Part shown: one piece after another, positions 1,525-63,206 of the stretch | Numbering within the stretch: the stretch's first letter is position 1 | Layout of the letters: each line of letters begins with the position of its first letter | From: Candidatus Saccharimonadales bacterium | GTDB taxonomy: Bacteria > Patescibacteriota > Saccharimonadia > Saccharimonadales > JAUPVS01 | Length of the DNA stretch: 64,000 nucleotides | Direction: 5' to 3' | NCBI GenBank assembly: GCA_039920385.1 | Contig: JBDSDR010000023.1 | Span: 6,430-70,429 of the forward strand | The notes under the pieces: model-generated | What the model was told of the DNA's origin: nothing | What the model saw: the letters and a program-made list of their open reading frames with translations, nothing else | The model's database searches: none | Position numbers and translations under genes: made by a program

Positions 1525-1584
1525 TAGCCTAAATAGACCCTCATCTTGTTACCCTTTATGTTTAACAGTTTAACGCAGCCGAGG

Positions 1585-3814: not shown

Positions 3815-4114
3815 TTATCTGTTTTGCGGGGGTTGGGTGGGGTTCAAAATCTGACGACTAAGGTTGCGGCTCTCCCCGTCCAAAATGGCCGCGAATCTCT
3901 GTCGAGCGGCGTCCTCGCGAGTCGCAATCGCCGCTTCGATGTCATGGTAGACGCCTTCTGCCCAGATCTCCGTGGTATCACCGTGCATCTCGGCTGGAGG
4001 GAAACCTTTTAGCCACTCCTTAGCAGCATATAAATCAGCTAGCTCAGGATCACCGTAAGAGGCTTCGAGAGCCTCTTCGGAATGACCGTGTTCAACAAAA
4101 TAGTGCTGTATCAT
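3815..4114 (-). CDS. Hypothetical small acidic protein (99 aa)
   Basis: Longest ORF in this gap. A -10-like TATAGT lies 6 nt upstream of the ATG. No recognisable motif. Confidence 0.45.
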   Translation of the reverse strand: MIQHYFVEHGHSEEALEASYGDPELADLYAAKEWLKGFPPAEMHGDTTEIWAEGVYHDIEAAIATREDAARQRFAAILDGESRNLSRQILNPTQPPQNR

Positions 4115-4152
4115 AGCTATACTATAGCAATTATTACAACGTTTGTCAATGG

Positions 4153-6291: not shown

Positions 6292-6329
6292 ATTATTTTC
6301 TCCTTTTTAGAGATTTGTTATTTAGTTTC

Positions 6330-6887
6330 TTATAAAGTTTCGATTATTGCCGGAATAGTGGCAAAGTCATCGAGTAGGGTTTGACGTAATCCGCCGTTAT
6401 AAAGCGCTGCGGCCGGGTGGTAAAGTGGCAGGTAAACCTGCTTAGCTTTGCGCTGCGGCTGGCCATGTACATCACTAATTTTTAGCCCTGGTAGAAAGCA
6501 CTCCATGCTGTGCTTACCGAGAGTAATGATTAGTTTTGGCTGAATAATCGCCATCTGTTGCTGCAAGTAGGGCAGAAAAGCTGCCTTCTCTTCCGGCAAC
6601 GGATCACGATTATTGGGGGGTCGGTATTTAACAATGTTAGTAATGTAAATGTCTTCCCGCTTGAGGTCAATCGCCCCAAGCATTTCGTCTAAAAACTTAC
6701 CGGCGGCGCCGACAAACGGCAGACCTTTGATATCCTCATTTTTGCCCGGTGCTTCGCCGATGAATACAATATTGGCATCCGGGTTGCCCTCACCCATGAC
6801 TAACTGCGTAGCGGTTTCGGCTAGTTCTGGGCAAACCTTATCGGCAAGGATTTGGGCTTTTAGTTTGTTGAGTTTGTCTTGATTCAT
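6330..6887 (-). CDS. Uracil-DNA glycosylase, family-4-like
   Basis: Motifs GEGNPDANIVFIGEAPGKNEDIKGLPFVGAAGKFL and NIVKYRPPNNRDP. The Fe-S cysteines expected for family 4 are not present (see findings). Confidence 0.8.
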   Translation of the reverse strand: MNQDKLNKLKAQILADKVCPELAETATQLVMGEGNPDANIVFIGEAPGKNEDIKGLPFVGAAGKFLDEMLGAIDLKREDIYITNIVKYRPPNNRDPLPEEKAAFLPYLQQQMAIIQPKLIITLGKHSMECFLPGLKISDVHGQPQRKAKQVYLPLYHPAAALYNGGLRQTLLDDFATIPAIIETL

Positions 6888-7081
6888 TTTTTTCTAATAA
6901 ACTGGATAACATTCTGGATACCGCCGATAAGTAGCAGTAGCGTAAAGCCATACTGCCACCAGCTACCAGTATCCAATGCCCGTGAGCCAATTAAGTAAGC
7001 TAGTGCCAACTCGATAGTTGCCATAGTGGCATAGCCACGGCGAGTTTTATGCCAGTTATCAAACGCCTTAACGATGTTCAT
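6884..7081 (-). CDS. Small two-helix membrane protein (65 aa)
   Basis: Two hydrophobic segments. Its stop overlaps the udg start by 4 nt, which suggests coupling. Confidence 0.5.
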   Translation of the reverse strand: MNIVKAFDNWHKTRRGYATMATIELALAYLIGSRALDTGSWWQYGFTLLLLIGGIQNVIQFIRKK

Positions 7082-7084
7082 TGT

Positions 7085-9223
7085 TTAGCCTTTCTTATCT
7101 TTGAGCTCTCTGGCAACTGCCTTCATGGATAGTTGTAGACGGCCTTTATCGTCGATGGCCAGCAGTTTTACATCAACTAAGTCGCCTTCTTTCACGACAT
7201 CACTGACACGCTCAACACGCTCTTCTTTAAGTTCACTGACATGAACTAGACCATCTTTACCGGGCATTATTTCGACAAACGCACCAAAGTCCATGACTGT
7301 TTTAACTGGGGCTTTGGTATAAATCTTGCCAACTTCAGGCTCGGCAACTAGGTTTTGGATAAACTCTTTAGCAGCGTCAATCGACTTTTTGTTAGGGCTA
7401 GCAATAAAGACCAAACCGTCATCCTTGATGTCGATCTCGGCACCAGTATCGGCGATGATGCGATTAATCATTTCGCCGCCCTTGCCAATCACTTCACGAA
7501 TTTTATCTGGGTTAATCTGAATTGACTCGACACGAGGCGCATATGGGCTCATCTCAGCCGGCTTACTTATAGTCGTAATCATATGCTTGAGAATGTGGTT
7601 ACGGCCGTCCTTACCCTGCTCCAAAGCTTGCTTGAGCACTTCTATTGGCAAACCATGAACCTTCATGTCCATCTGAAGTGCAGTAATACCCTTTTCGGTA
7701 CCAGCTACCTTAAAGTCCATATCGCCAGCAAAGTCTTCGGCATCGGCAATGTCACTTAAGATGATGGGCTTGTCGCCGTTCATCATCAGACCCATGGCAA
7801 TACCACTGACCGGGGCTTTAAGAGGCACACCGGCGTCGAGTAATGCCAAACAACTAGAACAGGTTGCCGCCATGCTGGTTGAACCGTTTTGGCTCATAAT
7901 TTCGGTGACGGAACGGATGGTATATGGGAATTCTAGTTCGGTTGGCAATACAGCAGCTAGAGCACGTTCGGCTAGGTAACCGTGGCCAATTTCGCGGCGG
8001 CCTGGGCTTCCGAGTCGCTTAACTTCACCAACGGTATAGCCAGGAGCGTTGTAGTGGTGGAAATAGCGGCGTTCGCCCTCTTTTTCCATGGTGTCGATCA
8101 GTTGTACGTAACTTAACGGTGCAACTGTAACAATGTTTAAAGCTTGGGTTAAGCCACGAGTAAAGATGCTTGAACCATGGGTTCGTGGCAACACGCCAAC
8201 TTCGCTGCTGAGTTCGCGAACTTCGGTTAACTTACGACCGTCGGGGCGAATCCCCTCTTCGACAATGCCCTGACGGACATCTTTATGAAGGGCCAGTTGG
8301 AAGGCATCATTGTATTCGTTTTTAAGTTCACCGTAGGCTTCCTCGCCAATTTCTTCGACGAAGTGATCCTTCATTTGGTCACGCAGTTTGGCAACTAAGT
8401 CGTTGCGTTCTGGATATGCCCGGCGCAAGTCGGCACCTAATTTACCAGCTACCCAAGTTTCAACCCGTTGCTGTATATCAGTATCAGGCAAACTAAGTTG
8501 GTAGTCTTGCTCCGTTACGCCAACCTTTTTGGCTAGTTCTTGTTGCAACTTGATCGCTGGTTGCATAGCCTTCTGTGCAAAAGCGATGCCTTCAAGAACT
8601 TCTTCTTCAGTGGCTTCGTTAGCACCAGCTTCGACCATCATGACACCGTTTTCGGTACCGGCTACAACTAGGTCGAGTTTACCATCGAGTTCTTCGGGGG
8701 TGGCAAAGGCTTTAAACTTGCCGTCAACCATGGCAACACGCAAACCAGCCACAGGGCCGTCAAATGGCGCGCCAGTTAGCATAAAGGCGGCGCTAAGGGC
8801 GATCATAGCCACCATGTCGGGGCGGAAGTCTGGATCCATACTTAAGACGCTGGCCACACCCTGAACTTCGTGCCTATAGCCTTTTGGCCATAGTGGGCGG
8901 ATTGGGCGATCGATAATGCGACCAATCAAGATAGCATCGTCACTAGGGCGACCTTCGCGCTTAATGTAACGACTGCCGCTAATCTTACCGGCAGCATACA
9001 TCTTCTCTTCGTAATCAATGCTTAATGGAAAGTAATCGAAGCCCTGCAAAGGCTTAGCACCAACCATAGTGCTGGCTAAAACTACGGTATCACCGTAACG
9101 AGCCACGACTGAAGCAGTGGTTCTAAAGCCTAAGCGGCCGACTTCGAGACTGAGGGTGCGTCCGCATAGCTCGGTTTCGACTTTAATAATTGGTTTACCA
9201 GTTGGGTTAATGGTTTGTCCCAT
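7085..9223 (-). CDS. pnp: Polyribonucleotide nucleotidyltransferase (PNPase)
   Basis: Two RNase PH domains, a KH domain (GKGGEMINRI) and an S1 domain. I place the start at Met32 of the track ORF (MGQTINP...), which is preceded by GAAAGGA. The track start at 9316 would add a non-conserved extension. Confidence 0.93.
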   Translation of the reverse strand: MGQTINPTGKPIIKVETELCGRTLSLEVGRLGFRTTASVVARYGDTVVLASTMVGAKPLQGFDYFPLSIDYEEKMYAAGKISGSRYIKREGRPSDDAILIGRIIDRPIRPLWPKGYRHEVQGVASVLSMDPDFRPDMVAMIALSAAFMLTGAPFDGPVAGLRVAMVDGKFKAFATPEELDGKLDLVVAGTENGVMMVEAGANEATEEEVLEGIAFAQKAMQPAIKLQQELAKKVGVTEQDYQLSLPDTDIQQRVETWVAGKLGADLRRAYPERNDLVAKLRDQMKDHFVEEIGEEAYGELKNEYNDAFQLALHKDVRQGIVEEGIRPDGRKLTEVRELSSEVGVLPRTHGSSIFTRGLTQALNIVTVAPLSYVQLIDTMEKEGERRYFHHYNAPGYTVGEVKRLGSPGRREIGHGYLAERALAAVLPTELEFPYTIRSVTEIMSQNGSTSMAATCSSCLALLDAGVPLKAPVSGIAMGLMMNGDKPIILSDIADAEDFAGDMDFKVAGTEKGITALQMDMKVHGLPIEVLKQALEQGKDGRNHILKHMITTISKPAEMSPYAPRVESIQINPDKIREVIGKGGEMINRIIADTGAEIDIKDDGLVFIASPNKKSIDAAKEFIQNLVAEPEVGKIYTKAPVKTVMDFGAFVEIMPGKDGLVHVSELKEERVERVSDVVKEGDLVDVKLLAIDDKGRLQLSMKAVARELKDKKG

Positions 9224-9359
9224 AGTGTCCTTTCGGGGAGTAGTGTTGGTTGCACGGGGCAAATCTATAAATGGCCTCTTGTGCGGGTGTGCCAAGTAAG
9301 ATCTGTTACTGTACAACCAATACCAATGTTAGTGAGCTTTTTAATGTGCACAAGCTTGG

Positions 9360-9378
9360 GCGGCCACGACGCGGCCGC
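9360..9378 (-). promoter_or_regulatory. GC-rich stem-loop between rpsO and pnp (possible processing or attenuation hairpin)
   Basis: GCGGCC (9360-9365) pairs perfectly with GGCCGC (9373-9378). No U-run follows. The position matches the rpsO-pnp intergenic hairpin known in other bacteria. Confidence 0.35.
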
Positions 9379-9393
9379 GCCAGTCTACGCAAA

Positions 9394-9660
9394 TTAGCGG
9401 CGAATTTTAAGCTTTTCGGTGATTTCTAGGTATTTGTTGCTGTCTTTTTTAGCTAAGTAACGGAGTAGGCGCTTGCGTTGGCCAACCATCTGCAAAAGTC
9501 CCCGGCGAGCCATGTGGTCTTTTTTGTTGGTTTGAAGATGCTCAGTTAGCTCGGCGATGCGGCTAGTCAAAATACCGACCTGTACCTCTGGTGAACCAGT
9601 GTCTTTGGGGTTGGTTTGTAAATCTTTGATGATAGTAGCTTTTTTCTCGGTTGTAATCAT
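9394..9660 (-). CDS. rpsO: 30S ribosomal protein S15
   Basis: 88 aa with [29 protein letters not shown], the S15 signature. Conserved rpsO-pnp synteny. Confidence 0.97.
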
Positions 9661-9714
9661 GTATTTCCTTATTCCTTTGATAACAGTTAGAGGTTGGTGA
9701 TGACGTTAGACCCA

Positions 9715-9743
9715 ATTATAGCAGACTCGCCCCTGTTTATCAA
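9715..9743 (-). promoter_or_regulatory. Sigma-70-type promoter for rpsO
   Basis: On the minus strand: TTGATA (9743-9738), a 17-nt spacer, then TATAAT (9720-9715). It lies about 55 nt upstream of the rpsO ATG, which has an AAGGAA SD. Confidence 0.6.
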
Positions 9744-9763
9744 CCCTAAAACAACTTTTTTGT

Positions 9764-10462
9764 TCAGTTGCTTACTTGTAGGCTTTGATAAATTGACTCT
9801 GAGCTTAATCTGTCTACAGGTAGAGCCTCTTTGATATCAAAATCACTGATTTTAGTGCGGCGTAACTGGCTGGTGTAGGCACCAGTTTTAAGAACTTCGC
9901 CGATGTCCTGAACCAATGATCTGATATAAGTCCCGCTCGACACGGCAACGGTAAATGAAAGCTCGGGATATTTGTACTCAACATCAGTAATTTCGTAAAT
10001 TTTAACCAGCCGTGACTTCATTTCTGGTACTTTGCCGTCTCGGGCGATTTTGTAGGCACGCTTGCCATCTATTTTTACGGCCGAGTAAATAGGCGGAACT
10101 TGGCTAATTTCACCCTTAAACTGCTCTAAAGCGGCCATAACAGCATTTTTTGGAGGTTCTACAGAGGAAACTGTAGTTTTCTCCCCTTCCTCATCACCTG
10201 TGGTACTGGTTTGACCCAAACTTGCCGTAACTTGGTAAGTTTTATCGAGCTTGGTAAATTCCTCGGCTTTTTTGGTGTAGTCACCGAGCATAACAATCAT
10301 CAAGCCAGTTGCTAAAGGGTCTAGGGTGCCAGCATGACCAACTGGAAAACGTTTTTTATTGGTGGTATTGAGGCCTGAATCCTGAATAATATGGCGAATT
10401 TTGTTAACCACATCAAAACTAGTCCAGTTTAGCGGTTTATCGATAAGTAAGTAGCCATTCAT
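9764..10462 (-). CDS. truB: tRNA pseudouridine(55) synthase TruB
   Basis: N-terminal GYLLIDKPLNWTSFDVV and the catalytic motif GHAGTLDPLATG. Confidence 0.93.
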   Translation of the reverse strand: MNGYLLIDKPLNWTSFDVVNKIRHIIQDSGLNTTNKKRFPVGHAGTLDPLATGLMIVMLGDYTKKAEEFTKLDKTYQVTASLGQTSTTGDEEGEKTTVSSVEPPKNAVMAALEQFKGEISQVPPIYSAVKIDGKRAYKIARDGKVPEMKSRLVKIYEITDVEYKYPELSFTVAVSSGTYIRSLVQDIGEVLKTGAYTSQLRRTKISDFDIKEALPVDRLSSESIYQSLQVSN

Positions 10463-12096
10463 TACTGAGATGGGGGCATTGGCATCGGCGGTGGTACCGG
10501 TGGCGGAGCCGTTGGATCACCGACGCTAGCCGTTGGGTCGGTTGGCTGGCTAGGCGGCAATAAGCTAGTTGGGATATTAGGGTTTACGCCATTGGTATTT
10601 GGCGGAGCGCCAAACGGAGTTGGATTGGCTGGCGGGTTTAGATCGACAGCCGGCGAGGCATTTAAGCGTTCTAAGGGGTTAAGTGGCGCGTTGGTGGGTT
10701 GAGCCGAGATTGCCTCGTCAACAGCTTCGCGAGCTTCTTCGATTACCTCAGCTTTAGGCTCAGTCGTATCGGCCAGCGGTTTTTCATCTAAATGTGGGCT
10801 CGACACTGATTCTTCGATGCCACTCAAAGTGGTACCAACACTTCTAACCGGTTCTCCCGACAGGCTGGTTGGTCGGTTCAGGATTGGCGGTGGTGGTGTC
10901 TGGCTATTAGCTGACGACAGTGAGAAAGGGTCCGTAGACGGCTCATTCTGAAGATGCTCAGGCTGACTATTAGCAGTCAGCTGACCGCCTAAGCTAGGCG
11001 GTTGCCAGGCCATATTGCCGGTTGGTTTAGGACTATCGTTAGTGGTAGATGCTGGGGTTCTATCAACTGCCGAACCGATGGCGGTGGCATGAGTCATAAT
11101 TGGCGGGTTAATCATGCTTTTGGGAGTTTCGCCTAGTAGGTCATTGCTGTCTTCGACTTTTTCCTCTGGTTTAGAAACTGGTTCCGAAACCGGTAGTTCT
11201 TCAACTGGAGCTGGCAAAACTGCTTCTGGGGTCTCGGTTTTAGCTGGCTTCTTATCAGTTTCTTGGTGAGAAATCTGCAACAAACCCGTACCATCATCGA
11301 CATCATCTTGAGTAGCCTCATCGGTAACGGCATCTTTTACTGGAATTGGCTGCTTGTCTTCTAGCTTGCTGGCAATTAGTTGCTGGTTGGCTCCAGCGCT
11401 CATAAGCTCCGAGGCCAGCGACATAGTCTGGGGGCTAGTTTTATCATTGCTAAAGCGGTCGGTTTCGGCGACGATTCCAGTCATAAAGGCTGTTGCCATT
11501 TGACCATCAATCGCTTCGGTTACAAGACCCTTGGTCAAAAGGGCTAACATTTCTGACAAACTGCTGGAGTTAAGATCTACCCAGTTGATTGCGCCCAAGT
11601 TTCCCTGGTCCTTATTGTTGACCGATATAACTGTGGCATCATGCAGAATTCGGCCGTGGGCAACAATCGCCTGATCAAGTTCACTTCTTTCGTGCACGCC
11701 CAGTGCCAAAACGGCGTCAACATTAAAATCACCTTGGCTGAAGTCGAGGTCTTTATCAGAAAGACTTGTTCTGTAAGGAGTGATGAAGATTTTGACAACC
11801 TTATCCTCTACCTTGTAGCGCAACTTGTCGGCTTTGGCTTTATCGAGAGCAATAATGAAGTCCCGCAAACTGTCGGTGTTCTTTTCGATAGTCGCTTCGG
11901 GCTTTAGAAACTCAATAGTTGATGGTATCGCCCCACTAAATACAGCGGTAGCATGTTTTTTTAAGTGGTTGAGGACTAACGTGATACCAATACAGGCCGC
12001 CAATTGGTCAACCGACGGGTTGGCACTAACAGTAATTAGCACATTGTTGGCTTCTTTTAAGCGGTCAATAATTTGTTGTCGAGCGTTCTGGTCCAT
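10462..12096 (-). CDS. DHH/DHHA1 phosphoesterase (NrnA-like) with a ~290-aa Pro/Thr/Ser-rich C-terminal tail
   Basis: The N-terminal ~250 aa show a DHH-family layout. The remainder is low-complexity and ends in PPPVPPPMPMPPSQ. Confidence 0.7.
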   Translation of the reverse strand: MDQNARQQIIDRLKEANNVLITVSANPSVDQLAACIGITLVLNHLKKHATAVFSGAIPSTIEFLKPEATIEKNTDSLRDFIIALDKAKADKLRYKVEDKVVKIFITPYRTSLSDKDLDFSQGDFNVDAVLALGVHERSELDQAIVAHGRILHDATVISVNNKDQGNLGAINWVDLNSSSLSEMLALLTKGLVTEAIDGQMATAFMTGIVAETDRFSNDKTSPQTMSLASELMSAGANQQLIASKLEDKQPIPVKDAVTDEATQDDVDDGTGLLQISHQETDKKPAKTETPEAVLPAPVEELPVSEPVSKPEEKVEDSNDLLGETPKSMINPPIMTHATAIGSAVDRTPASTTNDSPKPTGNMAWQPPSLGGQLTANSQPEHLQNEPSTDPFSLSSANSQTPPPPILNRPTSLSGEPVRSVGTTLSGIEESVSSPHLDEKPLADTTEPKAEVIEEAREAVDEAISAQPTNAPLNPLERLNASPAVDLNPPANPTPFGAPPNTNGVNPNIPTSLLPPSQPTDPTASVGDPTAPPPVPPPMPMPPSQ

Positions 12097-12244
12097 ATTT
12101 TTTTACGCTGTTTTTTGTTTTAGAGAATGTATACCAAAAGATTACCACTACCGGTTAGTTTTGTCTACTGCTTTCTTTACAAGAACAGAGCTGTCCGGTA
12201 TAGTGGTCTGCATTGTATAAACAACTAATGTTCTAAGGATATTC

Positions 12245-12586
12245 ATGCCAATTATCAAATCAGCTAAAAAGCGCGTTCGCGTCGCTAGCAAAGCTACGGC
12301 TCGCAACACTAAAACTAAACGAACCTTTAGAAGTGCCATTAAAGCCTTCCAAAACTCTTTAACAACTGGTAAGGATACTAAAAAGAAGCAAAGTGCCGCT
12401 CAGAGCAGCATCGATAAAGCTGTCAAAAAAGGTGTTATTCACAAGAACAAAGCCGCTCGAAAAAAGAGTCAGCTAGCCAAAGCCGCAAAATCTGCCGCTA
12501 AAGCCCCTGCCACTAAAAAGGCTGCCCCTAAGAAGGCTGTCGCCAAAAAACCGGCTGCTAAAAAAGCTCCAGCCAAGAAAAAATAG
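12245..12586 (+). CDS. rpsT: 30S ribosomal protein S20 with a Lys/Ala/Pro-rich C-terminal tail
   Basis: Starts MPIIKSAKKRVRVASKATARNTKTKRTFRSAIKAF, an S20 N-terminus. AAGGA SD. The C-terminus is AKAPATKKAAPKKAVAKKPAAKKAPAKKK. Confidence 0.9.
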   Translation: MPIIKSAKKRVRVASKATARNTKTKRTFRSAIKAFQNSLTTGKDTKKKQSAAQSSIDKAVKKGVIHKNKAARKKSQLAKAAKSAAKAPATKKAAPKKAVAKKPAAKKAPAKKK

Positions 12587-12587
12587 C

Positions 12588-13535
12588 TTAGCTCGAAAAG
12601 TTCAACAAGTAGTTGATAACCGCCTCATCAGCATCGATGGGGCGGCTTTTTAATTGAACATCGAGTTCGGTAGCTGCTCTGACCCAACCTTTTACATCTT
12701 GCAGGCTGTAGTTTTGTGCAACCGAAGCTGATTTGCTCAAAACATATGGGCTGACTTTGGCTTCTCGGGCGATGTCGGACTGGTTGCGCTCACCGGCTGT
12801 TTTTAATAAGGCCAGAATATGCAATTGCCAGGCCAGCATCCCCATAATTGCTAAGGGTTCGGTCTTTTGTTGGCGTTGCTCACGGTATAGAGCCACCGTC
12901 TTGGGCTTATTCCCCCTTAGGGCGGCATCGAGTAAATCAAAAACGCTACTTTGGGGAGTTGGCTCGGTCATTTCATCAATCGTCTGCCGGCTAATGGCGG
13001 GGCTATAATCTGCCAACTTTTGTAGTTCATTCGATAGCATCAGTTGGTTGGCACCAACCCTTTGAACTAAATACTGGGCATCCGATTGGCTCAAGCTGGC
13101 CTTTTCTTGCTTGGCTTGGTTAACTAGCCATTGGGCTAAACCGCGTTCATCTAACTCCTTGAACTCCCGAAAATCAGTCTGTTTTTGAAGGGCTTTGTAG
13201 TAGCTGGTTCGCTTGTCGAGCTTGGGCTCGACAATGATTAAATCGGTCGTGTCGTTAACGCTTGTCAAAAGTTGTTCAAGGTCTTCTTGGACAGCTTTTT
13301 GGGCAGACGGTTGGCGAAAAATAATGCACCGCTTAGCTACCAAAAATGGTAGCGCCTGTAAAATCGACGGCAGCAACTTGGGGTCAACATCCATACCATC
13401 GTAATTTTCCAACCCCATGTCGGTGTATTCTTTAATAAAGTCTTGACGAATTTTACGTAGCTCCTGACGGAGCATAAAGTCGTTGCTTCCAGTTAAAGTG
13501 ACAATCACTTTGGCTCTTTCTGGCAATACAGACAA
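12588..13535 (-). CDS. holA: DNA polymerase III delta subunit
   Basis: 315 aa. Length, position and helical C-terminal region are consistent with HolA. The assignment rests on general similarity recognised by eye. Confidence 0.7.
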   Translation of the reverse strand: MSVLPERAKVIVTLTGSNDFMLRQELRKIRQDFIKEYTDMGLENYDGMDVDPKLLPSILQALPFLVAKRCIIFRQPSAQKAVQEDLEQLLTSVNDTTDLIIVEPKLDKRTSYYKALQKQTDFREFKELDERGLAQWLVNQAKQEKASLSQSDAQYLVQRVGANQLMLSNELQKLADYSPAISRQTIDEMTEPTPQSSVFDLLDAALRGNKPKTVALYREQRQQKTEPLAIMGMLAWQLHILALLKTAGERNQSDIAREAKVSPYVLSKSASVAQNYSLQDVKGWVRAATELDVQLKSRPIDADEAVINYLLNFSS

Positions 13536-18037: not shown

Positions 18038-19345
18038 TTATATGTAATCCATCAGTCGTTCTAGCCCCATTGCCGGATGACGCAACTTAGTAAGCGCCCG
18101 AGACTCAATCTGCCTAATACGCTCACGCGTAAGTTTAAACTCCCTACCAACTTCCTCGAGCGTTTTGCTTTCGCCATTTTTGTCGACCATACCAAAGCGG
18201 AACCTAAGAATTGCCTGTTCTCTTTCGTCCAACCGCTCTAGTGCCCGATTTAGTTCTGTAGTTAAATCGTTATGTTTAATCATGTCGTCGTAGCCAGTTG
18301 TGGAAGCCGGGTCGGCCGTAGATTCGCCAAGCGTGCGAGAATTAGGGTCATCACCTAACTCCCGATCTAACGAGTCAACCTGACCCTCACGTCGGATACG
18401 AATCATATCAAGCACCTTCTGTTCGTCCCATTCAAGATCTTCGGCAAGTGCCAAAATATCTTTATGTTTATCCTCCAGAGCAAGTCTGGCTTCGGCTCGG
18501 CTAAGTTTGGTAAAATCATCGTTGACATGAACCGGCAGTCTAATCTCCCTACTAGTAGTATCAACCCCCCGACTAATTGCTTGGCGGATCCACCAGGTAG
18601 CGTAGGTGCTAAACTTAAAACCTTTACGATAGTCAAACTTATCCACCGCATGGTCCAAACCAAGATTACCTTCCTGGATTAAATCCATTAAAGGTAAGCC
18701 CCGATTTTGATGCTTCTTGGCGATTGAAACTACCAAACGAAGATTAGCATGCATAAAATCTTCCTTGGCACGCAGACCATCCCGTACCCGTCGCTCTAGG
18801 GCTCGTCGCTGGCTAACTGATAAATCAGGTTCGGCTAAACTGCTTTGGGCCTCTAGGCCTTCGGTTACCCGTTTGCCCAGGCGCGCTTCGCCAGCCTTAT
18901 CAATCAGAGGATACTGACTAATTTGCTTTAGGTACATCCTAACTAAATCGTCGCCCGATACTATGCGATTAGCGCGGGGCGTAACCGGTTTGTCTTCTCC
19001 GGGGGCTACGTATGTGGGCTTTTTGGCAGGTTTAGGCTTAGGGGCCTGCGCAGTTTTTGGTACAGCTATGGGTACGGGTGTTTTAGCCTCAACGGGCTTG
19101 ATTACTCGAGATGGGGCTGGGCGTAAATCTACTGTTACCTCTGTGGCCTCAAAAACAATCGGTTCATCGCTAGTCACAAACGGACACAACAAAAAATCAT
19201 CAATTGACTCTTCATCTATTTCTGGCTCGATTAGTGGGTTAAAGTCTAGCTCGGCAATCGATTTTAGGGCGACAACTGGTATAAACTCAGCAATCGCGGC
19301 CTGTTTAGCGTAAGCAGCTTCAGCGATGTCCAGTAATTCATTCAT
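18038..19345 (-). CDS. RpoD-like sigma-70 factor, second copy, with a divergent acidic and Pro/Lys-rich N-terminus
   Basis: Region 2 reads [39 protein letters not shown]. Region 4 reads [29 protein letters not shown]. The primary rpoD is the dnaG-linked copy at 25839..27008. Confidence 0.88.
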   Translation of the reverse strand: MNELLDIAEAAYAKQAAIAEFIPVVALKSIAELDFNPLIEPEIDEESIDDFLLCPFVTSDEPIVFEATEVTVDLRPAPSRVIKPVEAKTPVPIAVPKTAQAPKPKPAKKPTYVAPGEDKPVTPRANRIVSGDDLVRMYLKQISQYPLIDKAGEARLGKRVTEGLEAQSSLAEPDLSVSQRRALERRVRDGLRAKEDFMHANLRLVVSIAKKHQNRGLPLMDLIQEGNLGLDHAVDKFDYRKGFKFSTYATWWIRQAISRGVDTTSREIRLPVHVNDDFTKLSRAEARLALEDKHKDILALAEDLEWDEQKVLDMIRIRREGQVDSLDRELGDDPNSRTLGESTADPASTTGYDDMIKHNDLTTELNRALERLDEREQAILRFRFGMVDKNGESKTLEEVGREFKLTRERIRQIESRALTKLRHPAMGLERLMDYI

Positions 19346-25276: not shown

Positions 25277-25846
25277 ATGACTAGAAAACACATCATCGCC
25301 TTTGTTGGAATGCCTGGCAGCGGCAAAGGTACTTGCACGACATATCTACACCAAAAGCACAGCTTCCCAGTTGTGCACTTTGGAAACATGGTTTACGAAG
25401 AAGTGCAGCGGCGCGGCCTAGATAATGTCAAAGACGAGCAGTTCGTACGCGAAGACATGCGCGAGCAGGAAGGTAAAGCAGTGCTTGCCAAACATGTCGC
25501 CCGAAAGGCCGACGAATTTTTTGAAGAAGGTAGCGACACAGTTGTTCTCGATGGCTTATATAGTTGGAGCGAACTAAAGTTTCTTAAAGATAAATACGGG
25601 GCTGACCTGAGTGTCATTGCCATCACCGCCCCCCGCCAAGAACGCTATAGGCGCATTCTCGCGCGCAAAGATAGCCACCGCAAATACACTTCAGCCTCGC
25701 AGATTGAAGAGCGTGATATCAGTGAAATAGAGAATCTCGAAAAGGGCGGACCAATCGCCTTCGCCGACTTCACTCTGGCTAACCATCAATCTTCCGAGCA
25801 CCTCTTAAGCGACCTAGACGAAGTTGTTACAGAAATTCTTACTTAA
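25277..25846 (+). CDS. P-loop nucleotide/nucleoside kinase-like protein (adenylate or dephospho-CoA kinase-like fold)
   Basis: Walker [12 protein letters not shown] within a ~190-aa kinase-size protein. Substrate unknown. Confidence 0.6.
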
Positions 25847-27008
25847 TATAATCGTGCAATTTACGAGCATCTTTGTGCTTGCGTAGTTTAGCCAGAGCTT
25901 TAGCTTCGATCTGGCGAATACGTTCGCGGGTAACACTAAACTCTTGACCAACTTCTTCGAGAGTATGGCTCTTGCCATCTTCTAGGCCAAACCGGAGTTT
26001 AAGAATCTTCTGTTCGCGCTCTGTCAGAGCACCGAGCATGTCTTTAACATGTTCTTTTAGCAATTGGCCTGTGGCGGCTTCTTCTGGCGAGACCGAATCT
26101 TCATCTTCGATAAAATCACCCAACACTGAATCTTCTTCGTCATCGCGTACAGAGGCATCAAGGCTGGAAATATCCTGCTTAATCTTCATGATGTGCTCGA
26201 CTTTTTCGACTTCGATTTCCATTTCTTTGGCAATTTCTTCGTTGGTTGGTTCGCGGTTTAGTTCTTGGGTTAAACGACGTTGAGTACGAAGCAGTTTGTT
26301 AATAGTTTCAACCATGTGAACCGGTATACGAATGGTGCGGGCTTGGTCGGCAATGGCACGAGTAATCGCCTGGCGAATCCACCAGGTGGCGTAGGTACTA
26401 AACTTAAAGCCTTTGTCTGGGTCAAACTTTTCGACAGCTCGTAATAGCCCGGTATTACCTTCTTGGATGAGATCTAGAAGGTCTAAACCGCGACCAACGT
26501 AGCGCTTGGCAATACTAACCACCAAACGCATGTTGGCTTCGGCCATTTTATCTTTAGCACCCTTGTCACCGGCTACGACTTGGTTGGCTAGCTTAAGTTC
26601 TTCTTCGGAGTTTAAAAGTGGGATTTTACCAATTTCTCGTAAATACAATCGAACCGAGTCGTCGGCAATATCGTCCAAATAAGTTTGGTCATCCAAAACA
26701 ATCTCTTCTTCGTCTTCGTCCTCGGCCCATTCGCTAGTAAAATCAGCGGCATTTGGCTCGGTAGCACTAACAATTGATAGATTTTGCTCTGCTAGCTGAA
26801 TATACAGGGCGTCTAGAGCGTCGACGTTTTCGGGTGCATCAGGGATCACAGCATAAATATCACGTTGATCAATTTTTTTATCTTTTTTGGCTTTAGCTAG
26901 TAACTTTTTGGTCACAGCTGCAAAATCGGCCACCGGTACTTGGGTAACTGGCTTGGTTGATTTAGCTGATTTAGCTGGTTTTGTCGGCTTGTCGGCTTTT
27001 TTTGCCAT
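25839..27008 (-). CDS. rpoD: Primary RNA polymerase sigma factor RpoD
   Basis: [41 protein letters not shown]. Region 4 reads [27 protein letters not shown]. Located immediately downstream of dnaG. Confidence 0.95.
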
Positions 27009-53598: not shown

Positions 53599-53675
53599 GT
53601 ACCCGTAGCTCAGCTGGATAGAGCGTTGGCTTGCGGAGCCAAAGGTCGTAGGTTCGAATCCTATCGGGTACACCA
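53599..53675 (+). tRNA. tRNA-Arg (anticodon GCG)
   Basis: Hand-folded. Acceptor GTACCCG/CGGGTAC. D-arm GCTC-AGCTGGATA-GAGC. Anticodon stem TTGGC/GCCAA with loop TTGCGGA. T-arm GTAGG-TTCGAAT-CCTAT. Discriminator A and encoded CCA. Confidence 0.9.
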
Positions 53676-53683
53676 ATAAAAAC

Positions 53684-53707
53684 GTCTCACGTTAGTGGGA
53701 CTTTTTT
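53684..53707 (+). terminator. Rho-independent terminator after tRNA-Arg
   Basis: GTCTCAC-gtta-GTGGGAC followed by TTTTTT. Confidence 0.75.
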
Positions 53708-53719
53708 ATTGGTTATTTG

Positions 53720-53838
53720 GAAAGAATGAGAACCGTAGCGCGAAGCGCAGGTGCGACGGCAAGGTGCACGCGCAGGAGTTTACTCCGAGCATGTGCCGCA
53801 GACGGTAGCGAAGCGTCCATCCAGAGGGTACACCAAGC
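53720..53838 (+). ncRNA. Unclassified conserved structured element, copy A (tRNA-terminator-proximal)
   Basis: Shares the 15-mer GAAAGAATGAGAACC, two hairpins with compensatory changes and several conserved blocks with 58539..58636. It ends in a copy of the tRNA-Arg 3' end (GGGTACACCAA). Confidence 0.4.
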
Positions 53839-53880
53839 ATAAGCAGCACGAAAGACTTCCTAATGAAAGTCTTTTTTTGT
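53826..53880 (+). repeat. Repeat unit R0 (partial): duplicated tRNA-Arg 3' end plus private terminator
   Basis: GGGTACACCAAGCATAA, then AAAGACTT-cctaatga-AAGTCTTT, then TTTTTGTTT. The 11 nt at 53826-53836 are identical to 53666-53676. Confidence 0.65.
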
Positions 53881-53896
53881 TTGGTATGATTCTATT

Positions 53897-54538
53897 ATGC
53901 GTACTCCGAACCCCGATAACCCCACTCAACGCGAACACATTTCGGCTGAACACTTAGCTGAGTTCGTTAAGGGCTTGGAACCACGCGGAGATAAGCCAGC
54001 TTTCGTTGCTATTTCTGGATTTGGAGGATCAGGGAAATCTACATTAGCCACAAGGATAGGTGAAATGATCGGAGAAGAGGCGACCGTTGTACCGATTGAT
54101 AACTTTATTATTGGAGCCAGGGATGAGCGGTCAGAAGACTGGCACACATTCGATAGGGAAAGACTTGACCATGATGTAATTCAACCTGCACGCATTGGCG
54201 AGATACTTAGGTACCAAAGGTATAATTCGGGAGACTGGGTCAATAACAGAGGAGGAGATTGGGTCGAGACTACTGTTGGCCGAATTATAATTATTGAAGG
54301 CTGTGGCATTCTACACCCAGCGCTGATGCCAGCCTACGACCTATCCGCATGGATAGACTTACCGCAGTACCGAGCGCTAGAATCCGCAAAGTATCGTGAC
54401 GCCTCCGAAGTAGAGCTTTTTGGGGATGACGATACAGTAGTTCTATGGGATGAAGTTTGGGGACCGAACGACAAAGACTTCTTGGACAACTTCAGACCAG
54501 ACCTCCATGCAACAGTACTTATCGAACCACAGTTCTGA
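53897..54538 (+). CDS. Cassette A: P-loop kinase (uridine kinase/PRK-like)
   Basis: Walker A ISGFGGSGKSTLA. Extended -10 TGgTATGAT lies 6 nt upstream of the ATG. The stop TGA lies inside repeat R1. Confidence 0.65.
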   Translation: MRTPNPDNPTQREHISAEHLAEFVKGLEPRGDKPAFVAISGFGGSGKSTLATRIGEMIGEEATVVPIDNFIIGARDERSEDWHTFDRERLDHDVIQPARIGEILRYQRYNSGDWVNNRGGDWVETTVGRIIIIEGCGILHPALMPAYDLSAWIDLPQYRALESAKYRDASEVELFGDDDTVVLWDEVWGPNDKDFLDNFRPDLHATVLIEPQF

Positions 54539-54609
54539 CCTCAACCACTACGCCACACCAAAGCATAAGCGTTGTCTGAAGACTTCTTCTGAGGTCTTTT
54601 TGTTTACAG
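54532..54609 (+). repeat. Repeat unit R1
   Basis: GTTCTGACCTCAACCACTACGCCACACCAAAGCATAA, then AGACTTC-ttct-GAGGTCT, then TTTTGTTT. Confidence 0.7.
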
Positions 54610-54617
54610 GTATAGGG

Positions 54618-55196
54618 TTAAAGTTTGCTCAAGTCGGGCGCAGAATCCGGCCATTCTAAAGCATAGTGTCCAGCCGTCCAGACAATTTGTTCAACCAGCA
54701 TATGAGGTGCTTTAGCAATTACCCCCAGTCGCTGCCCAGCGCTTTCAGCATCTTTTATACGGTTAAGATCCACGGTCGGGCTATAACCCTCTATTACTTT
54801 CCCAGACCTGGTAATGTAGTTATGCTTATCAACTTCATAAGGGTCGGCTCCGGAGTAACTACCGTTCGTTCCTTTCCACATTCCAAGATACCAACAGAGA
54901 TCTTTTCCAAGAGTGATGAACGGGCGTTTATATATTAAGTGAGCATTCCTATCAGCGCCAGGCTTCACATACTGTTGACGGCTATAAGTAGCCCATACTT
55001 CGGGAGGCGGGTTCTCCTCTCTCAAAAGACCTGCCAGCACCTTGAGGCCTGCGGCTACCTTAAAAAATCCTCCATTACGGTATCGTTGCTGTAAAGCTTC
55101 ATGTTCAGCATTAGCTCTCGCTTGTTGTTGCTGGGCGGCAGTTTCGGCAATAGATTCAGCTCTTGCACGCTCAATACGACGGTTCATTTCAGACAT
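54618..55196 (-). CDS. Cassette B: hypothetical protein (192 aa)
   Basis: Longest ORF in the interval. AAGGAG SD lies 5 nt upstream. N-terminal Q/A-rich helix. No recognised family. Confidence 0.55.
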   Translation of the reverse strand: MSEMNRRIERARAESIAETAAQQQQARANAEHEALQQRYRNGGFFKVAAGLKVLAGLLREENPPPEVWATYSRQQYVKPGADRNAHLIYKRPFITLGKDLCWYLGMWKGTNGSYSGADPYEVDKHNYITRSGKVIEGYSPTVDLNRIKDAESAGQRLGVIAKAPHMLVEQIVWTAGHYALEWPDSAPDLSKL

Positions 55197-55254
55197 AACT
55201 ACTCCTTATACAAGAATAGTTATGTTTTATCAAATACTTTTCTGAACTTTTGTT

Positions 55255-55330
55255 GTTCTGACCTCAGCTATCGCGCCACACCAAGCATAATCACCGTACA
55301 AAGATCTCTGGATGGAGGTCTTTTTTGTTT
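55255..55330 (+). repeat. Repeat unit R2
   Basis: GTTCTGACCTCAGCTATCGCGCCACACCAAGCATAA, then AGATCTC-tggatg-GAGGTCT, then TTTTTTGTTT. Confidence 0.7.
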
Positions 55331-55628
55331 ACTCTGTTGGTTCGGGTACAGTTGGCTGCTCACCCTGCTGGGTCCGAAGACCTGCTATAACACCAGAGTC
55401 GAAGCCCATTTCGTGACAGCCAAGTCCCACGGCAATTGCTCCTGTGGCGATACCTACTACAGAGAGGGCATTAAGAGCAAGATCAGTGAACGCCTCACCC
55501 GTTTCCACTATACCTATAGCAGCTGCACCCATGGCAATCAGAATCACTCCAGGAGCTATGTAACCCATTTTATGGCTTTCTCTGCGGTTTCTATGGTGTT
55601 CGATTTGAGCTTCTATAGTACTGTTCAT
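55329..55628 (-). CDS. Cassette C: small Gly/Ala-rich two-TM protein (99 aa)
   Basis: Two hydrophobic helices (GVILIAMGAAAIGIV and VVGIATGAIAVGLG). TATACT lies 7 nt upstream of the ATG. Preferred over the junk-like antisense ORF 55101..55676. Confidence 0.5.
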   Translation of the reverse strand: MNSTIEAQIEHHRNRRESHKMGYIAPGVILIAMGAAAIGIVETGEAFTDLALNALSVVGIATGAIAVGLGCHEMGFDSGVIAGLRTQQGEQPTVPEPTE

Positions 55629-55675
55629 GTTTCAAAGTATAGGCTTATCAATTTTTTCTGTAAACCATACCAGTA

Positions 55676-55742
55676 GTTCTGACCTCAGCCATCACGCCAC
55701 ACCAAAATATGAACCTCCCGTACATGGGGTTTTTATTTTTTT
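55676..55742 (+). repeat. Repeat unit R3
   Basis: GTTCTGACCTCAGCCATCACGCCACACCAAAATATGAA, then a weak CCCG-taca-TGGG hairpin, then TTTTTATTTTTTT. Confidence 0.65.
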
Positions 55743-55756
55743 GCTATAGTTAGAGC

Positions 55757-56155
55757 ATGAATCAGCTCGACCAGCAGCCCCAAACACAAGAACCAGAGAA
55801 AAAGCCCCGCAGGATGTACACTGCTGGCTGGATTACTGGTGGATTGGCATTAGGCGCATTTGGCGTAAGAGTGATAGAAGTAGCCCCAGACACTGGAAGT
55901 AAGATTTTTGGCGGGCTTCTTGCCGGTCTCGGCTTACTAACTGCCGGGGGAATAGGAGGCTCTTACTATCTTGGGGATTCGGACGTTAGCCCTCATCGTC
56001 TCCATTTACCACAACCTACAGAAATAGACACTGCTGGCTGGGAAGACCCACTTGCCGTTGAAGGGCTTGGTGTTAGGGCAGATGACATACCAGATGGAAG
56101 CTGGCCGGACACATTTGATCGGGAAGCTAACGAAGGAATAATTCCACCTGAATAG
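55757..56155 (+). CDS. Cassette D: small Gly-rich two-TM protein (132 aa)
   Basis: Helices GWITGGLALGAFGV and FGGLLAGLGLLTAGGIGG. Extended -10 TGcTATAGT lies 6 nt upstream of the ATG. Confidence 0.55.
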   Translation: MNQLDQQPQTQEPEKKPRRMYTAGWITGGLALGAFGVRVIEVAPDTGSKIFGGLLAGLGLLTAGGIGGSYYLGDSDVSPHRLHLPQPTEIDTAGWEDPLAVEGLGVRADDIPDGSWPDTFDREANEGIIPPE

Positions 56156-56171
56156 GTACGGATCCGTTCAG

Positions 56172-58538: not shown

Positions 58539-58636
58539 GAAAGAATGAGAACCCAACTGCGAAGCAGACGTTCTATCACAAGGAGCTCGCGCAGAAATTT
58601 ATTTCGAGCGTGCTCGCAGGTTCGGCCTATCTCACC
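58539..58636 (+). ncRNA. Unclassified conserved structured element, copy B
   Basis: Starts with the same 15-mer GAAAGAATGAGAACC. Hairpins CTGC-GAA-GCAG and GAAA-TTTA-TTTC covary with copy A. It fills the gap between the tRNA terminator and the convergent comF stop. Confidence 0.4.
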
Positions 58637-62192: not shown

Positions 62193-63206
62193 CTAGAATA
62201 TCCCTCCCGGTACCAACCATTGCAGGAATGCAAACATGAACCCATAGGCAATCAGAGCTATCAAAGCGTTCATAATCCGCTTTTTGGCAACCGCCACCTG
62301 TTGAGGGTTGCTGCCGGCTGTAACGTACTGAATCCCACCAATGATAATCATCACTGTTACGATTATACCGACCCCAGCGCTCAAGAAGTTTACAAATAAT
62401 AGTAAGTTTTTGACTAATGGATTCTGCTTGAGGCAGGCTTGGAGCTTCGCTTCATCTATATAATCATCAGACTTGTCACCTGGCGTGCCATTATCATTGA
62501 CAGCACTGCAACAAGCAACCTTATCGCGTTCGGCATTATCCGAATTGGAGTTACAGCTATCATCGACGGTTGCGGCGGCGGCTGTATCGGCTGTAGTCGA
62601 GGCCGCATCTGTAGCACTCTCCTGGGCAGCTTTAGCAGCCGCTTCGGCAATTGTAGTACTAGTGGGGTTACCGCCGTTAGACGATACGGCAGCGGCCGCG
62701 GCAGCGGCGTCTTTGGCAGCTTGTTGAGCGCGTGCAACAGCGGCAGCAGCGGCGGTTGGATTGTTGGCGTTTCGGGCTGCAATTGCAGCGTCGGCGGCGT
62801 CTTTGGCAGCCTTTTGGGCCTTGGCTATGGCAGCGATAACGGCTGCCGGGTTATTCCCCTGAGTCTGGGCAGTGGTTATAATGTTACTGGTTATTTTGGA
62901 GGCATTGACAATCTGCGCCAAGTTACAAGCTACCGAAGTACCAGCAACAGTTGAGTCCTTTGTCCAGTAGTAACAATTGTTAGAGGCTGGTTCGACAGCC
63001 GCGCCGATGACGAAACCAGTTGATTCCAGAGTAGCCTTATCGCACTTAGGGAGTTGTTCGACTGCGCCAGTAGCACTATTCTCGACGTAGCAACGCGGCG
63101 CGGCCTGCACAAGCTGAGTTTTACCGACAATACTAACGGCAAAAGTTAATACAAAAAAGCTAGCAACTAGTAGTACTCTTGCTTTGCCGGAGTAAAATTT
63201 AAGCAT
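62193..63206 (-). CDS. VirB2/TrbC-like pilin paralogue P6 with a large Cys- and Ala-rich ectodomain (337 aa)
   Basis: Signal peptide. About 250-aa ectodomain with at least 9 Cys and a tandem NNPxA...AKAQKAAKDAA repeat. C-terminal module IIVTVMIIIGGIQYVTAGSNPQQVAVAKKRIMNALIALIAYG. Confidence 0.7.
   Translation of the reverse strand: MLKFYSGKARVLLVASFFVLTFAVSIVGKTQLVQAAPRCYVENSATGAVEQLPKCDKATLESTGFVIGAAVEPASNNCYYWTKDSTVAGTSVACNLAQIVNASKITSNIITTAQTQGNNPAAVIAAIAKAQKAAKDAADAAIAARNANNPTAAAAAVARAQQAAKDAAAAAAAVSSNGGNPTSTTIAEAAAKAAQESATDAASTTADTAAAATVDDSCNSNSDNAERDKVACCSAVNDNGTPGDKSDDYIDEAKLQACLKQNPLVKNLLLFVNFLSAGVGIIVTVMIIIGGIQYVTAGSNPQQVAVAKKRIMNALIALIAYGFMFAFLQWLVPGGIF

Follow-up and report, generated by a model that had tools for sequence, protein, structure and literature searches.

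The tandem ssrA islands of Dehalococcoides are the closest published analogue that we found of the locus described here, an array of small genes behind tRNA-Arg(GCG) in a 64,000-nucleotide stretch of a Candidatus Saccharimonadales bacterium genome (assembly GCA_039920385.1, contig JBDSDR010000023.1; the whole stretch is called the window, and positions are counted from its first letter). The Dehalococcoides islands are stacked behind the transfer-messenger RNA (tmRNA) gene. Each of their boundaries is marked by 20 bp repeated from the 3′ end of that gene, a conserved element-side motif of 15 bp lies just upstream of this repeat, and the cargo varies between strains. A serine recombinase of 540 aa, DsiB, is encoded on the reverse strand beside attL, and 15 islands without an integration module have been discussed as cis-mobilizable elements (PMC3146451). 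Literature searches yielded no description of such arrays in Saccharibacteria or other Patescibacteria. Here, we interpret the window region 53676-56160 as a set of very small units integrated one behind another at the tRNA-Arg(GCG) 3′ end, a reading to which we assign a probability of about 0.6.

Insertion of one cassette after another at a conserved gene's 3′ end, with site repeats left between the cassettes, is also a property of the staphylococcal cassette chromosome mec (SCCmec), of pseudo-SCC composites, and of the Enterococcus cassette chromosome, and large serine recombinases act in trans to mobilise SCC-type cassettes that lack a recombinase of their own. Cis-mobilizable elements of the ICESt1 family are integrase-less segments with att sites that accrete in tandem at one attachment site. 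Integrases that target tRNA or tmRNA genes (together, t(m)RNA genes), whose sublocations Williams is said to have described in 2002, reportedly act in the 3′ part of the gene, which the incoming element then restores. The genomes of the candidate phyla radiation (CPR), or Patescibacteria, are about 1 Mb in size, and the gain and loss of accessory genes in them is poorly understood.

Related loci were found through homologues of the DUF3152 protein gene that bounds the window array (L016 and L019) and of its first cassette gene, A (L022, L023, L025, and L026). As in Dehalococcoides, the arrays start directly 3′ of a t(m)RNA gene (tRNA-Arg in the window, tRNA-Tyr in L022, and tmRNA in L023), repeats of the target stand at the boundaries, and L019 carries an island with a 522-aa serine recombinase, comparable in this respect to DsiB. 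Unlike the Dehalococcoides islands of about 10 kb, the units described here measure 0.4-2 kb and hold one or two genes; the repeat is 7-13 nt rather than 20 bp; four targets are used (tRNA-Arg GCG, a tRNA-Arg of the TCG type, tRNA-Tyr, and tmRNA); and every unit has a terminator and often a leaderless promoter, while most arrays are without a recombinase. SCCmec inserts at rlmH and its cassettes range from kilobases to tens of kilobases, in contrast to the t(m)RNA targets and small units seen here. Known cases of accretion are decayed integrative conjugative or mobilizable elements, whereas the present units look like built minimal modules that recur across genera. With integron arrays they share single-gene granularity, a site that overlies the end of an open reading frame (ORF), growth inferred at one end, and cargo of mostly unknown function; the window differs in having no IntI, attI, or Pc. 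In comparison with other t(m)RNA integrative elements, the units are far smaller, and no integrase is linked to them in the window. As regards sublocation, a GC-rich element found at the same loci duplicates the target from T-loop to CCA (19-23 nt), whereas the gene cassettes duplicate only its extreme 3′ end. Relative to tandem t(m)RNA islands, the novelty lies in the small scale, the short repeat, the use of several targets by one arm family, the built-in terminator, and the sometimes leaderless promoter.

Organization of the tRNA-Arg(GCG) array

The features of the array and its boundaries are as follows, in window coordinates.

53599-53675, plus strand: tRNA-Arg(GCG), the proposed integration target (attB side); found by ARAGORN and by the Rfam tRNA model at 71.3 bits
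53684-53711, plus strand: present terminator of tRNA-Arg, GTCTCAC-GTTA-GTGGGAC and a T-run; terminator scan and sequence
53720-53818, plus strand: GC-rich structured mini-element; 2 matches in the window against 0.02 expected
53819-53880, plus strand: R0, displaced and partly decayed 3′ end of tRNA-Arg; sequence and alignment with the other copies
53882-54538, plus strand: cargo of cassette A; ORF 53897-54538, 213 aa
54532-54609, plus strand: junction R1; hairpin 54578-54599 and T-run
54618-55196, minus strand: cargo of cassette B (ORF), 192 aa, function unassigned
55255-55330, plus strand: junction R2; hairpin 55300-55323 and T-run
55329-55664, minus strand: cargo of cassette C with a promoter-like site; ORF 55329-55628, 99 aa
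55676-55742, plus strand: junction R3; hairpin 55711-55732 and T-run
55742-56155, plus strand: gene D; ORF 55757-56155, 132 aa
56172-57584, minus strand: DUF3152/PG_binding_4 protein, the conserved chromosomal anchor that bounds the variable region

The tRNA and ORFs A to D have the coordinates and strands given in a first-pass annotation of this DNA, and the hairpin and T-run that it placed directly 3′ of the tRNA were confirmed; the tRNA itself ends in ...CGGGTACACCA, followed by A. The junctions are marked by a 30-nt block, GTTCTGACCTCARCYAYYRCGCCACACCAA, which occurs exactly three times in the window, always on the plus strand (starts 54532, 55255, and 55676), and which had no match in 100 shuffles even when three mismatches were tolerated. 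Each of the three blocks sits at a gene junction with a terminator-like hairpin and T-run downstream. It had been claimed that every junction carries such a unit; this is so at R1, R2, and R3, but not between D and the DUF3152 gene, where there is none. Because no block follows it, D may be either the last cassette or part of the resident flank, and it was not found beside DUF3152 in the relatives compared. The pairwise identity of 27-28 of 30 originally quoted for the blocks is correct for R1/R3 (27/30) and R2/R3 (28/30) and too high for R1/R2 (25/30).

Homology extends beyond the block to a unit of about 80 nt, comprising the block, a trailer beginning GCATAAGC.., a hairpin, and a T-run. R1 consists of the arm GTTCTGACCTCAACCACTACGCC, the repeat ACACCAA, and the trailer AGCATAAGCG; R2 has the arm GTTCTGACCTCAGCTATCGCGCC, the same repeat, and the trailer GCATAATCA; and R3, which is probably the innermost and oldest junction, has the arm GTTCTGACCTCAGCCATCACGCC, the repeat again, a distinct trailer (AATATGAACC), and a distinct hairpin. 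R0 (ATCCAGAGGGTACACCAA) keeps the target-derived repeat ACACCAA at 53830-53836, followed by a trailer of the original type (GCATAAGCAGC), an AT-rich hairpin of 8 bp, and a T-run. R0 represents the 3′ end that tRNA-Arg originally had, now displaced and partly decayed, and the terminator that now serves the tRNA is unlike the trailer and terminator of R0. Alignment of R0 to R3 with two copies from L019 shows a common trailer and a T-run that leads into GTTTA. The hairpins of R0, R1, R2, and L019 are homologous variants of AAAGAYNTC...GAGRTCTTTTTTGTTTA, with R3 as the sole exception, so that the earlier description of a private, different terminator in each copy applies to R3 and not to R0, R1, and R2. 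No plus-strand gene lies upstream of R2 or R3, and the R2 terminator is orphaned; a trailer with a terminator is what a tRNA gene needs directly after its CCA, which explains the orphan terminators of both junctions. RNA folding of the units returned the terminators alone, with no conserved fold of the block and unremarkable z-scores in the window.

Trailers in L026 (2718-2775 and 3191-3244), L022, and L025 carry a further motif, AAGCATAA, and its complement, TTATGCTT, around the terminator hairpin. In some units the order is ACCATAAGCATAAT..hairpin..TTATGCTTG, and elsewhere the complementary form alone follows CCAA. The motif pair could be a pair of protein-binding half-sites.

The repeat as a hybrid junction

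In five loci the right part of the block, its last 7-13 nt, has the sequence of the local target's own 3′ end. The window repeat ACACCAA matches tRNA-Arg ...GGGTACACCAA; the target-derived block end in L019 is TACACCAA; the L022 block ends in CACCCTGCACCAA, to be compared with tRNA-Tyr ...ACACCCTGCACCAA; the L026 block ends in TGTACCAA, to be compared with a tRNA-Arg(TCG)-type end, ...CCCGGTGTACCAA; and in L023 GCTCCAC corresponds to the tmRNA 3′ end ...ATGCTCCACCA. The target tRNA of L026 lies outside the fetched DNA, and the tRNA-Arg(TCG)-type end is intact in L025. On the left, all copies begin abruptly at GTTCT, and the sequences upstream show no homology. Two truncated copies (L019_c and L019_d) keep the arm, and their homology ends where the target-derived part would begin. 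The arms linked to gene A in the window and in L019 have the middle TCAACCA in common, which is absent from the other arms of both genomes, so that the arm belongs to, and travels with, the cargo unit on its left.

A conserved arm joined to a part that matches the target makes the block, at the level of sequence, an attR-type hybrid junction: a 23-nt element-side arm, composed of the 11-nt core GTYCTRRCYTC and a variable middle, followed by the last 7 nt of the tRNA as the target-derived repeat. The variable middle occupies block positions 12-20, just left of the target-derived part. A scan for dyad symmetry pointed only weakly to a centre near block position 14.5, a signal that is not used as support here. 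Derivation from tRNA is limited to the last 7-13 nt of the block. The tRNA-like spacing from T-loop to CCA that had been read into the whole block is confined to this genome: in the relatives, CTA, CTG, or TTG takes the place of the supposed CCA. Loop positions 57/58 are moreover non-canonical (T and G), a 5′ T-stem partner is lacking, and neither ARAGORN nor the Rfam tRNA model recognised the block as a tRNA; Rfam searches of the window and the relatives yielded tRNAs and a tmRNA end only. A longer junction variant, composed of GTTCTRA..., an insert, (G)AGTTGGTTCCAATTAGAAAYKTTGRRG, and the tRNA 3′ repeat, was observed at L019 5517-5473 (minus strand) and L026 3948-4068 (plus strand) and is common to these two distant arrays.

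Arrays in related genomes

Blocks of one family (GTYCTRRCYTC, variable middle, ...ACCAA) mark the gene junctions of four independent Saccharimonadales arrays, those of the window, L019, L022, and L026. The degenerate 11-mer GT[TC]CT[AG][AG]C[CT]TC was scanned on both strands of 157 kb, representing the window and the related loci, and occurs 12 times where about one occurrence is expected (an estimate). All 12 occurrences lie at array junctions and in the orientation of their array. A profile made from 11 blocks recovers junctions only, together with one copy on which it had not been trained (L022 12802). Within the 64 kb of the window, where it is restricted to this locus, and within the 157 kb, where it is restricted to arrays and to a single orientation, the block does not behave as a dispersed repeat of the REP, MITE, or BOX type, nor as the generic, scattered terminator-associated motif that the first-pass annotation had named as a refuting outcome.

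The gene content between these junctions is highly variable. In L019, where DUF3152 is 72% identical to that of the window, the locus begins (in window orientation) with a tRNA-Arg-like end and its terminator, a short GC element, C′ (79% identical to C), and a block, and continues with an Asp/Glu racemase gene, a block, a 107-aa gene, a truncated block, A′ (69% identical to A), a second truncated block, a rhodanese gene, and DUF3152. L016, with a DUF3152 protein of 69% identity, holds four entirely different genes and no block between tRNA-Arg and DUF3152. The L022 array (NCBI GCA_039738735.1) is situated behind tRNA-Tyr (8440-8525) and contains two GC elements, a 293-aa gene, a block, A (72%), a block, a GC element, a 405-aa gene together with an HD-domain gene, a block, another GC element, and a final repeat, TGCACCAA, after which conserved housekeeping genes begin. 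In L023, A comes directly after the tmRNA 3′ end and its GC element. At least five blocks surround seven small genes in L026, where the cargo includes genes of 77, 112, and 213 aa and those for NUDIX, methyltransferase, DUF1801, A, and MscL proteins. Homologues of gene A are therefore found in three further arrays (L019, L022, and L026), at a tmRNA 3′ end (L023), and in a decayed locus (L025). Cargo differs from array to array, and only A, present at four different targets, and C, present at one further locus, recur, in different order; the comparison across relatives that the first-pass annotation had proposed reveals hypervariable cargo between conserved flanks.

When the AI-2E transporter was used as a synteny anchor in GTDB, one Saccharimonadales locus was recovered (L004, 62% identity), and its downstream region is not syntenic. 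Upstream of the L026 array are a partial reverse transcriptase gene (1-750, minus strand; precomputed RVT_1, with a weak match to group II intron reverse transcriptase/maturase) and a gene for a 436-aa protein without an assigned family (891-2201, plus strand). A survey of 95 complete genomes reported no group II introns in Patescibacteria (PMC13011429).

Cassette genes

Gene A, which is identical to NCBI protein ABIQ89_01505, encodes a P-loop protein with a weak match to the nucleoside/uridine kinase family, and its stop codon lies inside block R1. Extended -10 boxes were found 6 nt before the ATG of both A (TGGTATGAT, 53882-53890) and D (TGCTATAGT, 55742-55750), in agreement with the first description of the locus, and for gene A the arrangement of TGnTATSAT, 6-7 nt, and ATG is kept in five relatives (L019, L022, L023, L025, and L026). 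Start codons at this distance from an extended -10 predict that the A and D mRNAs are leaderless; neither gene has a Shine-Dalgarno sequence. Gene B has seven homologues at E <= 0.001 among 1.84 billion representatives, six of them near full-length at 35-46% identity, and is on this basis a real gene of a rare family. Genes C and D encode proteins of 99 and 132 aa, each with two hydrophobic segments, and C is preceded by a promoter-like site from 55664 to 55636. A database homologue search with C returned C itself alone, and no family or function was obtained for B, C, or D from Pfam, PADLOC, or NCBIfam.

Proposed serial integration and the search for its recombinase

Two models had been proposed for the locus at first sight, and one of them, serial site-specific integration into the tRNA 3′ end, is the best-supported reading now that relatives have been compared and appears largely right. 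It is favoured by the target-matched repeats, the variable cargo, the displaced R0, and the presence of one block family in four arrays. According to this model, a unit would consist of a trailer, a terminator, a cargo gene that brings its promoter along (a leaderless one for A and D), and an arm. In circular or incoming form it would recombine at the tRNA 3′ end through the action of a trans-acting site-specific recombinase, with the crossover probably placed within the block's variable middle or at the right-hand edge of that segment. The incoming unit would provide the tRNA with a new terminator and displace the previous junction downstream, so that the array would grow at its tRNA-proximal end. 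Later, and independently of this, a GC-rich mini-element with the T-loop region as its target would have been inserted between the tRNA and R0. Mobility of the units is what the comparison of sequences suggests.

The enzyme would be encoded outside the window, and large serine recombinases are the best candidate class, given the example in L019. An ORF with a Resolvase N-terminal domain (E = 4.5e-36) is present there in a gene called as 522 aa, and domain and length together identify the product as a large serine recombinase. The recombinase island is AT-rich (35-42% GC against 46-48%) and abuts the tRNA-proximal end of the array; its junction with the array starts GTTCTGACC and ends GGGGTACACCA. 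This position fits, in a single case, the prediction of serial integration for the newest arrival. The DNA fetched for L019 contains no intact tRNA-Arg. Also encoded on the island (5521-12673) are DUF488, helix-turn-helix, SRAP, and Y-family polymerase proteins, and the contig ends inside a gene at 13577. A search of viral contigs with the L019 recombinase gave no match.

A number of observations weigh against serial integration. Neither an excision product nor an empty site was seen, nor any presence/absence difference between strains with exact breakpoints; only one sample contains this genome. The statement of the first-pass annotation that the window contains no recombinase holds, since Pfam found none in 26 window ORFs and phmmer, with XerD and gamma-delta resolvase as queries, found no tyrosine or serine recombinase among all window ORFs of at least 50 aa, whereas the same queries hit the one ORF of L019 described above. 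None was found near the arrays of L022, L023, or L026 either; the link to a recombinase comes from one locus, L019, and the junction there is a longer variant of the block. Exact-pattern searches found no true copy of the block in GTDB species representatives, IMG/VR, or JGI metagenomes. The target-derived repeat is short (7-13 nt), and for a single integrase it is unusual that one arm family appears at the ends of four different t(m)RNA genes. The total GC of the cassette genes equals that of the genome, their GC at third codon positions being slightly lower. Comparison of the window with L019 shows no co-segregation of the trailer subtypes (CCAAGCAYAAGCAGCA and CCAAAGCATAAGCG) with the cargo downstream of them, which speaks against a simple definition of the cassette and makes the unit boundaries given here provisional. 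Finally, blocks resemble one another more within arrays (24.2/30) than between them (20.4/30), a difference that fits ongoing site recombination and also gene conversion. Two block matches in other loci were rejected as chance, one in eukaryote-like DNA (L015) and one inside a phage gene (L027).

A GC-rich mini-element at the same sites

The GC-rich element between tRNA-Arg and R0 runs GAAAGAATGAGAACC ... GCAG and includes a hairpin of the GCGAAGC type. The second window copy (58539-58619) follows tRNA-Ser(TGA) and is itself followed by GGTTCGGCCTATCTCACC, a decayed copy of the tRNA-Ser 3′ end. The layout is clean in L016, where tRNA-Arg(GCG), a terminator, a short element, an exact 23-nt duplicate (TTCGAATCCTGCCGGGTGTACCA), and a terminator succeed one another. 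L023 has the element behind its tmRNA 3′ end, and in L022 two tandem copies follow tRNA-Tyr. Copies in the related loci are located as follows.

L016, about 4490-4448, minus strand
L019, about 5430-5385, minus strand
L022, four copies: 8575-8680, 8755-8860, 10665-10875, and 12870-12990
L023, 68-165
L025, 3730-3853
L026, 2577-2695

Members of the family are 45-240 nt long and occur after a t(m)RNA 3′ end and its terminator, or within or just after block units (L022 and L026); directly after every member, the tRNA stretch from T-loop to CCA is duplicated over 19-23 nt. Six copies have a common hairpin core (..GCRCAG-stem-loop-stem-CGAGC..GCAG), in which 11 of the 15 predicted pairs show compensatory changes and two stems are supported in this way, and the hairpins are often of the GCGAAGC type. 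No Rfam family matched the element. It looks like a separate, non-autonomous mobile family with the universal GGTTCGAATCC T-loop as its target, one that has spread into the same loci. Origin from a group I intron remnant was considered and rejected, there being no RF00028 hit, and the published tRNA introns of Patescibacteria interrupt the anticodon loop at position 35/36, unlike the site of this element. In L025, genes for GIY-YIG proteins at 4023-4295 (90 aa) and 8325-8561 (78 aa) directly follow tRNA-Arg(TCG) and tRNA-Lys(CTT), respectively. The first of these genes lies between exact 45-nt repeats that comprise the right end of the GC-rich element and the tRNA 3′ duplicate, an arrangement that could represent an autonomous form of the element.

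Alternative explanations

The strongest competitor to serial integration, though one to which only a modest share of the probability can be given, dispenses with a recombinase altogether. The units of about 80 nt would serve as a terminator scaffold, between copies of which cargo is swapped by homologous recombination after DNA uptake, with gene conversion acting on the scaffold. The greater likeness of blocks within arrays than between them (two L019 copies, a and b, are identical at 30/30), the trailer subtypes common to the window and L019 irrespective of cargo, and the scarcity of recombinases near the arrays would all be expected from such exchange. However, it explains neither how a unit first became attached to unrelated genes, nor why the right part matches the local target in arrays at four different t(m)RNA genes, nor why the block has so sharp a left boundary, and 80 nt at 70-90% identity is a poor substrate for homologous recombination.

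Nuclease homing, in which a GIY-YIG-type endonuclease would cut t(m)RNA 3′ regions and repair would copy in a donor with a replacement 3′ end, the short tRNA-end duplicate being the microhomology used for annealing, is improbable. The two GIY-YIG genes of L025 do lie right behind tRNAs, one of them with 45-nt flanking repeats, and GC-rich elements are situated at tRNA ends and also beside or inside the block units of L022. These genes are nevertheless tied to the GC-rich T-loop element and not to gene cassettes of the GTTCT type; a phmmer search found no GIY-YIG gene in the window or at the other array loci, and small GIY-YIG proteins are not established homing enzymes.

Still less credence attaches to the proposal that the block, rather than being a recombination scar, functions as an RNA or as a regulatory element (a 3′ untranslated region motif, a small RNA, or a tRNA-like module) and was spread by local duplication. 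Conservation of the 11-nt arm core across genera, the single orientation with a terminator always downstream, and the complementarity between GACCTC in the block and the 3′ arms of hairpins R1 and R2 could be read in this way. However, the folding and z-score results given above, together with the lack of an Rfam or tRNA hit, give it no structural basis, and R2 and R3 have no upstream plus-strand gene or clear promoter from which they would be transcribed. The genes between the blocks are unrelated and differ among relatives, and duplication therefore cannot produce the pattern.

The second model of the first-pass annotation, an integron-like platform, has fared badly, and a canonical integron or close relative with its integrase outside the window is very hard to credit. 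Single-gene granularity, a junction repeat over the A stop codon, and a variable array are integron-like traits, but Pfam and phmmer found no IntI in the 64 kb, the junctions are conserved in sequence and do not form imperfect-palindrome attC folds, and the GTTRRRY core is lacking, as GTTCTGA and GTTCTAA do not fit it. Integron cassettes would be co-oriented and promoterless, whereas these genes have mixed orientation with promoters and terminators of their own, and the anchor is a t(m)RNA end. Equally negligible is the notion that the block encodes a small minus-strand peptide, W-C-G-[VA]-[VIM]-[VA]-E-V-R-T (54532-54561, 55255-55284, and 55676-55705), as this frame, though open in all window copies, L019, L022, and L023 with substitutions that look conservative, is judged coincidental because its starts (an ATG two codons upstream in R1, TTG in R2, and an ATG inside the hairpin loop in R3) and its lengths (15-26 aa with unrelated ends) are inconsistent, and it has no ribosome-binding site and residues that differ between genera (GVMA, SKVA, and RVMN).

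Other observations on the window

Exact look-ups of the window proteins returned only the two Logan contigs of the genome itself, from one sample (SRR26386594), and no strain variants. Breaks between Logan unitigs of this and related genomes coincide with t(m)RNA 3′ ends and with GC-rich elements (at about 53795-53822 and 58490 in the window; contig ends of L016 and L023), for which the repetition of these short sequences in the genome is the likely cause; the breaks are not taken as evidence of heterogeneity. Elsewhere in the window, a 337-aa protein encoded at 62193-63206 (minus strand) has a C-terminal type IV secretion system pilin domain, and two sigma-70 paralogues are encoded less than 8 kb apart (18038-19345 and 25839-27008, minus strand).

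Implications for Patescibacteria

Serial integration may be one instance of something wider, although we put this forward tentatively and regard it as possible rather than probable. The arrays could represent a dedicated gene-capture platform of the Saccharimonadales, and perhaps of other CPR bacteria, with the granularity of an integron, in which self-contained units (terminator, leaderless promoter, ORF, and 23-nt arm) are inserted singly at the CCA-proximal end of any of several t(m)RNA genes. The trans-acting enzyme of such a platform would be a large serine recombinase or a recombinase of a kind not yet recognised, and the GC-rich element, aimed at the T-loop, would constitute a second, independent mobile family in the same niche.

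For these organisms, a junction of 30-80 nt at single-gene insertions behind t(m)RNA ends provides a searchable signature of the CPR flexible gene pool. The junctions are also candidate att sites, which may be paired with a recombinase to give genetic tools for Saccharibacteria. The design of terminator, leaderless promoter, and ORF shows how insertions can be insulated beside an essential tRNA. If the units move as single genes, they would represent a second route to integron-like modularity, and if the platform reading is true, ultra-small genomes would possess a compact and insulated means of trading single genes.

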